This document shows, piece after piece, positions 39,365-40,250 of a DNA stretch of 64,000 nucleotides. Position 1 is the first letter of the stretch. Each line of letters begins with the position of its first letter. The DNA is taken from sequence record MT127620; one strand, 5' to 3'. The stretch is from Escherichia phage PGN6866. The translations under genes were made by a program, and so were the position numbers. Under the pieces are notes generated by a model. The model was not told where the DNA came from, did no database searches, and worked only from the letters and a program-made list of their open reading frames with translations.

Positions 39365-39943
39365 TTAGTAAGACACGTCACCACTTGAATGGGACATGTT
39401 GCTCTTGACGAAGTAGCAATATTTGCCAAGACCTTCATTAATTTCTTGAAGCATACTCTGATCGACAGGGTAGGTGGCTAAATCACCATCAAACTCATCC
39501 ATCTTCTCAATAATACACATCAAGGTCATGCACATATCAGAGAGCATACCGTCCATATCTAGGTCAGCATTACCCTCTGAGAACCAAGCATGAGAAAGAT
39601 AGTTAGCTGCTGTAGCGTCCACTTTAACGCAGTGGTAACGCATACGTTCAGCAATACGATCTCCTACCTGTCGTGCGTAATCTTCCAGCTCATCAAACAT
39701 ACCATGAACACCCTGAAATCCTGCACCAGAGACGTTCCAGTGGTAGTTTTTAGCTTTGATATGCAAGAGTTCCATGTTAGCTTGTAAGCAGCTCAGGATG
39801 TGTTCTAGGCTGTTTCCACTAATCATACCTTGCATCGTTTCAAGGCGAGAGATTGATAGGTCGGACCGGTCTAACATGCTATAACTGTCACGACCAATCT
39901 CAGGTAAATCAAAGACATTCTTATGCATTTGGGTTTTCTCCAT
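39365..39943 (-). CDS. Dps-like ferritin-fold protein (start uncertain)
   Basis: YHWNVSGAGFQGVHGMFDELEDY....DRIAER aligns with the Dps HWN.RGA.F..VH.M.D.......D..AER motif. Confidence 0.65.
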   Translation of the reverse strand: MEKTQMHKNVFDLPEIGRDSYSMLDRSDLSISRLETMQGMISGNSLEHILSCLQANMELLHIKAKNYHWNVSGAGFQGVHGMFDELEDYARQVGDRIAERMRYHCVKVDATAANYLSHAWFSEGNADLDMDGMLSDMCMTLMCIIEKMDEFDGDLATYPVDQSMLQEINEGLGKYCYFVKSNMSHSSGDVSY

Positions 39944-40250
39944 CAAGTTCAACTGAGTTAGCAACGTTACGTGCAATATTATCCATTACCTGCTGGGTAA
40001 TTACGATGCAGTTCTGTGGGTCTACTGACTTAGAACGCCCCATTTCAGGGTCATACACCTTAACTCGCTTAGCAGTTGAACCTGTAACCTGAAGAACCTT
40101 CAACAGATACCCCTGATTACCAATAGACCAAGCAACAACATCACGATTCTTGATAAAGCGACCAAGCATATCACGATGATAAAACTGTTGCATCACCTTG
40201 GATTTTGTAATCTCTTCAGTGGGCGGGGCCACTTTACTCAAATCTAACAT
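39921..40250 (-). CDS. Hypothetical protein (109 aa)
   Basis: ORF. Confidence 0.5.
   Translation of the reverse strand: MLDLSKVAPPTEEITKSKVMQQFYHRDMLGRFIKNRDVVAWSIGNQGYLLKVLQVTGSTAKRVKVYDPEMGRSKSVDPQNCIVITQQVMDNIARNVANSVELDGENPNA

Follow-up and report, generated by a model that had tools for sequence, protein, structure and literature searches.

The gene considered here lies on the minus strand of a phiEco32-like Kuravirus genome (Gordonclarkvirinae), within a stretch of 64,000 nucleotides from Escherichia phage PGN6866 (sequence record MT127620) that was analysed as a whole and is termed here the window. It is predicted to encode a mini-ferritin of the Dps family, and over the surrounding 8 kb the window shares 94-96% identity with SU10 and similar phages. 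The genes and features of this region, in window coordinates, are as follows:

37723..38379, minus strand: ThyX, flavin-dependent thymidylate synthase (PF02511, E=1.1e-43)
38372..38851, minus strand: HNH_3 endonuclease ORF, 159 aa, between thioredoxin and ThyX
38841..39116, minus strand: phage thioredoxin (PF00085, E=2.2e-13)
39125..39304, minus strand: gp66 homologue, 59 aa, hydrophobic, between Dps and thioredoxin (PHROG 9296)
39330..39358, minus strand: terminator-like GC-rich hairpin with an 11-bp stem (consensus scan and RNA fold)
39365..39928, minus strand: Dps-family mini-ferritin CDS (PF00210, PHROG 3636, PDB Dps matches, identity to phiEco32 gp67, AlphaFold model)
39365..39400, minus strand: Dps C-terminal residues ~176-187, a predicted disordered tail ending in Tyr
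39644..39742, minus strand: segment coding H63-R95, including H63, W64, H75, D79, D90 and E94 (residues invariant in homologues)
39938..39941, minus strand: Shine-Dalgarno GGAG, 9 nt upstream of ATG 39928 and within the gp68 3' end (read from sequence)
39921..40250, minus strand: gp68 homologue, 109 aa, basic (PHROG 10984, E=1.9e-64), with a predicted SH3/Tudor-like beta-barrel
40945..41478, minus strand: dCTP deaminase (PF22769, E=3.6e-34)
41488..42915, minus strand: ORF of 475 aa homologous to phiEco32 gp73 (437 aa), with no Pfam match
60001..60076, minus strand: tRNA-Arg(TCT), a single gene

The usual order of genes is dCTP deaminase, small ORFs, gp68, Dps, thioredoxin and ThyX, and the Pfam matches to ThyX, thioredoxin and dCTP deaminase around the Dps gene bear out an earlier note on this DNA, which had placed the gene inside a nucleotide-metabolism block. 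Thioredoxin adjoins Dps or lies close to it in phiEco32, Privateer, 7-11, A24 and the metagenomic relative L007; both L007 and a second metagenomic relative, L006, have the same phage gene order. Two neighbouring ORFs deserve brief mention. Where the window carries the HNH_3 ORF (38372..38851), phiEco32 has only a 15-nt gap; this ORF probably encodes a mobile homing endonuclease whose presence differs from one Kuravirus to another. Homologues of the gp73-like ORF are labelled nucleotidyltransferase in SU10-like records.

The open reading frame that contains the Dps gene extends over 39365..39976 on the minus strand when counted from a TTG codon (203 aa), and it encodes the segment KNYHWNVSGAGFQGVHGMFDELEDYARQVGDRIAERMR. 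The start had earlier been called ambiguous on the grounds that this ORF overlaps the upstream gene; it does overlap that gene, but the ambiguity can be resolved, the true start being almost certainly ATG 39928. The resulting CDS (39365..39928) comprises 564 nt, that is, 187 codons plus a stop, and its product begins with MHKNVF. This start is chosen because a GGAG lies 9 nt upstream of it; because the CDS then begins within the last 8 nt of the upstream gene (39921..40250), so that start and stop overlap at the junction ATGCATAA; because an equivalent start, MH(N/K), occurs in every aligned homologue; because the same 564-nt CDS is annotated in the phiEco32 record; and because the calculated mass of the 187-aa product, 21.2 kDa, matches the 21.2 kDa reported for SU10 CDS67 (PMC4281155). 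Two longer versions, starting at TTG 39976 (203 aa) and at ATG 39943, were considered and dropped, inasmuch as 39928 is favoured by the ribosome-binding site, the N-termini of homologues, the annotation of phiEco32 and the mass of the SU10 protein.

With respect to expression, SU10 CDS67 has been classed as a middle gene product and detected by mass spectrometry (MS) through 6 peptides covering 35.8% of the protein (PMC4281155), from which it follows that the Dps protein is made during infection. No match to the phiEco32-type late promoter motif TAATGTAT occurs near the Dps gene, all six matches within the window lying elsewhere, and shuffled sequence contains sigma-70-like promoter matches at least as often as the region between 37 and 46 kb does. 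The hairpin at 39330..39358 begins 7 nt past the Dps stop, within the 60-nt gap that precedes gp66; its stem folds as RNA at -15.5 kcal/mol (z=-2.0 versus shuffles). Because its T-run is weak, it is best viewed as a candidate element that could either stabilise the mRNA 3' end or act as a partial terminator.

Membership of the encoded protein in the Dps family is indicated by several sequence comparisons. It scores 31.1 bits (E=2.6e-7) on the Pfam ferritin domain (PF00210), whose gathering cut-off is 24.5, and it matches PHROG 3636, a phage family labelled 'DNA binding protein', at E=2.6e-55, with residues 35-180 aligned to profile positions 2-149 of 149. A phmmer search of the PDB finds dozens of Dps chains, and every match at E<0.1 is a Dps protein; the best matches include about 30 Dps chains at E from 3e-9 to 1e-3, headed by M. 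smegmatis Dps2, B. subtilis MrgA and B. anthracis Dlp-2 (E ~3e-9 to 1e-8). In sequence, then, the resemblance to Dps is well beyond chance.

The predicted fold points the same way. An AlphaFold monomer model built on 15 homologues (pLDDT 79.8, pTM 0.72, core blocks 85-97) places helix A at residues 41-65, B at 71-98, BC at 107-112, C at 125-150 and D at 154-176, preceded by a disordered N-terminus (residues 1-21) and an additional helix of low confidence (22-37), and followed by a disordered C-terminal tail. The model thus has the arrangement by which Dps proteins are recognised--four bundled helices, a long crossover loop that contains the short BC helix, and no additional E helix at the C-terminal end--and in a Foldseek comparison with the PDB the best 50 matches listed are all from the Dps family, at target-normalised TM scores of 0.70-0.92. 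The four-helix bundle and BC helix are shared with M. smegmatis Dps2 (2z90/4m35), MrgA (2chp), Dlp-2 (1jig) and E. coli Dps (1dps); cellular Dps structures superimpose on the model at target-normalised TM scores of 0.75-0.92, with an rmsd of 1.1-2.5 Å for the best matches. Among the best 60 PDB sequence matches and the best 50 fold matches no ferritin or bacterioferritin occurs, barring three exceptions: one Dps-Bfr fusion construct, one chain to which its depositors gave the name 'putative bacterioferritin', and the Dps chains of Listeria, whose entries read 'non-heme iron-containing ferritin'. A 24-mer ferritin or bacterioferritin, which would have its di-iron site within each subunit and a fifth helix (E), is ruled out by the sequence matches, by the fold matches and by the lack of a helix after helix D in the model.

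The catalytic residues are likewise those of a Dps protein. Residues H63, W64, H75, D79, D90 and E94 correspond to H51, W52, H63, D67, D78 and E82 of E. coli Dps in a gapless alignment with a constant offset of 12 (1dps residues 44-83); from the established structural literature on Dps, we take these positions to be those of the ferroxidase ligands. The HW..H...D / D...E motif that they form is common to cellular Dps and the window protein. All six residues are unchanged in 15 close homologues and are also kept in the homologues from Privateer, 7-11, A24 and LAh_9 and in E. coli Dps itself; their invariance thus spans Kuravirus, Grimontviridae and Lahexavirus homologues at 31-100% identity. 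The E. coli Dps sequence used for this comparison agrees with PDB 1dps/1f30; a PDB profile search whose alignment included that sequence returns its top matches by construction and served only as a check on the sequence.

The protein at 39365..39928 is therefore assigned, by sequence and predicted structure, to the Dps-type mini-ferritins. The earlier note had proposed just this family and fold, starting from the likeness of the quoted segment to the Dps ferroxidase-site region, and the proposal stands: the six residues align and are invariant, the profile searches (PF00210 above its cut-off and PHROG 3636) place the protein in no unrelated family, and the structure prediction that the note had called for yields a Dps-like bundle both in AlphaFold and by Foldseek.

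Outside of the catalytic centre the window protein has features of its own. It is rich in Met and Cys; helix C of the Kuravirus-clade proteins carries a clade-specific GML.DMCM motif; and the C-terminus of these proteins is a disordered tail whose last residue is almost always Tyr (..SSGDVSY, ..EERTEAY), a tail not present in the Privateer, 7-11, A24 and LAh_9 homologues. The acidic stretch DDDTAD of E. coli Dps, which presumably lines the iron-entry pore, aligns with YPVDQS in the window protein. If this pore assignment is right, iron uptake by the phage protein might differ because of that replacement.

The identity of the protein is correct but already known, because phiEco32 gp67 (ABY52868.1; phi32_67) is identical to it at 187 of 187 residues, with the same start codon, and has been annotated since 2008; GenBank describes it as 'DNA-binding protein; member of the Dps family'. 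The surroundings of gp67 are those of the window as well, with gp68 upstream, gp66 and thioredoxin downstream, and a 60-nt gap after the gene. Also belonging to the same family, with the same ferroxidase residues and context, are SU10 CDS67, Privateer QIN94861/gp068, 7-11 gp073, A24 gp053 and LAh_9 gp087, the last three from phages of Salmonella (7-11), Cronobacter (A24) and Aeromonas (LAh_9); all are prolate (C3) podophages. The non-Kuravirus homologues are 146-156 aa long and 31-45% identical to the window protein, from which they differ by having neither the N-terminal extension of ~35 residues nor the Tyr-ended tail. SU10 CDS67, recognised as containing a Dps domain, was reported as common to all five C3-morphotype phages sequenced by then (PMC4281155). 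Dps proteins have furthermore been described in gut Gratiaviridae and other gut phages (PMC8008677) and in Lactobacillus plantarum myophages (PMC6669764), and for these a role in iron or reactive-oxygen tolerance during infection has been proposed (PMC8008677; PMC6669764). The Gratiaviridae and Lactobacillus phage proteins are likewise phage-encoded and near DNA-metabolism genes, but they represent separate acquisitions, their structural matches to the window protein having only 15-25% identity. Hence the gene, which had been described as unusual for a phage, is not so in this phage group, where it is annotated in phiEco32 and discussed for SU10 and Privateer, nor is it confined to that group.

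Nor is it a phage copy of the host's Dps gene. Recent capture of a host dps is ruled out by 19% identity to E. coli Dps and by a score of 34.5 bits against the cut-off of 114 for the enterobacterial Dps equivalog (NCBIfam NF006975); more generally, the window protein falls far under the NCBIfam equivalog cut-offs. Cellular Dps proteins of solved structure are only 19-27% identical to it, and by comparison with them it has an additional N-terminal segment with the low-confidence helix 22-37. The gene occurs in 136 phage records, and among the matches listed nearly all are Kuravirus or related C3-podophage genomes, the exceptions being a few weak matches (27-29% identity) in Streptomyces and Synechococcus phages. 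When a profile of the phage clade was compared with 1.8 billion representative proteins, 3394 matched at E<=1e-3 but only 7 clusters at E<=1e-30, and the traceable nearest relatives are phage (C3-type) proteins or come from phage-like metagenomic contigs, one being a Salmonella phage 'putative DPS protein'. Because of this disparity (3394 versus 7) and of the phage identity of the nearest relatives, the window protein is placed, on sequence grounds, in a small, old clade. A separate oddity is the metagenomic protein P0032 (1156 aa), which has 20 distinct stretches matching the HWN..AER ferroxidase segment (profile positions 63-98); this reflects either faulty assembly or an unusual tandem repeat.

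The gp68 gene is almost always translationally coupled to Dps: it lies directly upstream with a start/stop overlap of 1-8 nt in six of the seven lineages examined (the window, Privateer, A24, LAh_9, L006 and L007), while in 7-11 it adjoins thioredoxin. The other gp68 loci are:

L002, 3639-3923
L004, 3609-3962
L005, 3687-3956
L006, 3243-3590
L007, 4679-5008

The gp68 homologues have a pI of 8.8-10 and a conserved HRDML.R motif. Pfam and NCBIfam contain no match to gp68, and a PDB sequence search finds no significant one. AlphaFold predicts for it, with low to medium confidence (pLDDT 63), a small barrel of five strands, for which Foldseek returns generic Tudor/SH3-like matches only (E>=2e-3, TM<0.5). 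Because of the stop/start overlap in six of the seven lineages, gp68 may be a functional partner of Dps.

Taken together, the intact and conserved catalytic site, the middle-gene expression and the setting among replication and dNTP genes argue that the protein is a working mini-ferritin, which would detoxify iron and H2O2 during phage DNA synthesis; a rough probability of 0.6 is given to this reading. Its subunits, made as a middle gene product alongside the enzymes of replication and nucleotide metabolism, would assemble into a hollow dodecamer of 23 symmetry, as those of cellular Dps do, with ferroxidase centres between paired subunits, one of which would contribute H63, H75 and D79 and the other D90 and E94. 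At these intersubunit centres Fe2+ would be oxidised, with H2O2 as the preferred oxidant, and the Fe3+ would be mineralised and stored inside the shell. Both Fenton reagents would thereby be removed, and replicating phage DNA would presumably suffer fewer hits by hydroxyl radicals. ThyX is a flavoenzyme able to leak H2O2, and for this speculative reason a peroxide sink encoded nearby is plausible.

How such a protein would relate to DNA depends upon its charge. The window protein has a pI of 4.71 and a net charge of -15, with -3 in the N-terminal 45 residues and 0 in the C-terminal 15, as compared with a net charge of -4 and a tail of +3 for E. coli Dps. A flexible Lys/Arg-rich N- or C-terminal tail, which mediates the contact with DNA and defines the DNA-binding subclass (the E. 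coli type) rather than the Dps family overall, was looked for in the window protein and not found. Because the protein is very acidic and is without a basic tail, the GenBank label 'DNA-binding' is, as far as its composition indicates, unsupported; for the same reasons the protein probably acts as a soluble sink for iron and peroxide and does not by itself coat DNA. In many Kuravirus records (e.g., ES17, DE5, IME267 and YW01) the gene instead goes under the name 'integrase', an annotation error copied between records; at least one record has 'ferric iron binding protein'.

These properties weigh upon the alternative that the protein binds and condenses DNA. It would then coat either the phage DNA under replication or the nucleoid of the host, in the manner of Dps in stationary-phase E. 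coli. The family name and the GenBank annotations favour this alternative, although the label was carried over from that name; so does gp68, whose basic character, coupling to Dps and predicted SH3/Tudor-like barrel could lend the pair an affinity for DNA. Moreover, the Grimontviridae and Lahexavirus homologues have no long N-extension but N-termini that are short and basic (+2/+3 over residues 1-20), whose Lys and Arg residues resemble the E. coli Dps tail, and because of these basic N-termini DNA binding may occur elsewhere in the phage family. The window protein, however, has an acidic N-extension and a non-basic C-terminal tail, and to our knowledge the Dps proteins of Listeria and A. tumefaciens and the B. 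anthracis Dlp, which are without basic tails, do not bind DNA. DNA coating, which the earlier note had suggested as a means of protecting replicating phage DNA, is thus unsupported for the window protein, and this alternative is considered unlikely.

Alternatively, the protein might store and donate iron, buffering the supply to the class Ia ribonucleotide reductase of the host or, among relatives, to a phage NrdD/NrdG, together with the adjacent thioredoxin. The conserved synteny with thioredoxin, dCTP deaminase and ThyX accords with this, as do the anaerobic ribonucleotide reductase (NrdD) genes that lie nearby in five relatives (Privateer, A24, LAh_9, L006 and L007). No ribonucleotide reductase, however, was found near the Dps gene in either the window or phiEco32; synteny with replication genes suits a protective role equally well; and we know of no Dps protein that serves as a dedicated iron donor. 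A role as iron donor accordingly appears quite unlikely.

Highly improbable, finally, is a virion-associated function, in which the protein, in or on the prolate capsid, would act on the genome, whether packaged or incoming, in the manner of encapsulin ferritin cargo: the gene sits in the middle (replication) module rather than in the late structural module, an iron-loaded shell of roughly 250 kDa could co-purify with phage particles, and a study of SU10 by cryo-EM and of its virion proteins makes no mention of Dps or gp67. What speaks for such an association is, in part, the MS detection of the Privateer homologue in particles purified by a CsCl step and equilibrium gradients (PMC7881722), a detection that a purely cytoplasmic Dps role does not predict. 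SU10 CDS67 was also detected in a phage preparation, but that sample was merely PEG-precipitated, and its authors warn of possible contamination by middle proteins (PMC4281155). In addition, the BFVD models A0A6J7XDU5, A0A6J7WPK9, A0A6J7WIS1 and A0A6J5N5R9, from uncultured Caudovirales (333-763 aa), combine a Dps-like domain with what UniProt names a prohead protease. By analogy with encapsulins, these fusions suggest a ferritin-like cargo targeted to capsids.

A more elaborate version of the mini-ferritin reading is also conceivable, in which an acidic Dps shell and gp68 form a two-part module, and the Tyr-ended tail of the Kuravirus proteins might dock on a T7-like replisome (thioredoxin plus DNA polymerase). 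In phage T7 the acidic, aromatic-ended tails of gp2.5 and gp4 dock on the thioredoxin-binding domain of the DNA polymerase. The Kuravirus Dps tail recalls these tails, by analogy, as does the C-terminus of the phage primase/helicase, which ends at 43411 on the minus strand with ..DGASPW. The two-part module is a long shot; if it existed, it would put the iron and peroxide sink at replicating phage DNA, or else carry the sink into the capsid, and it would explain the MS detections in virions.

What sets this locus apart is thus less the identity of the protein than its function, its acidic and tail-less character and its conserved coupling to gp68. The puzzle is that a strictly lytic lineage of prolate podophages keeps a catalytically intact mini-ferritin beside thioredoxin and the genes for nucleotide synthesis. 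To settle its function would correct the widespread 'DNA-binding protein' and 'integrase' labels and would show whether phage DNA replication is limited by the way in which iron and peroxide are controlled.
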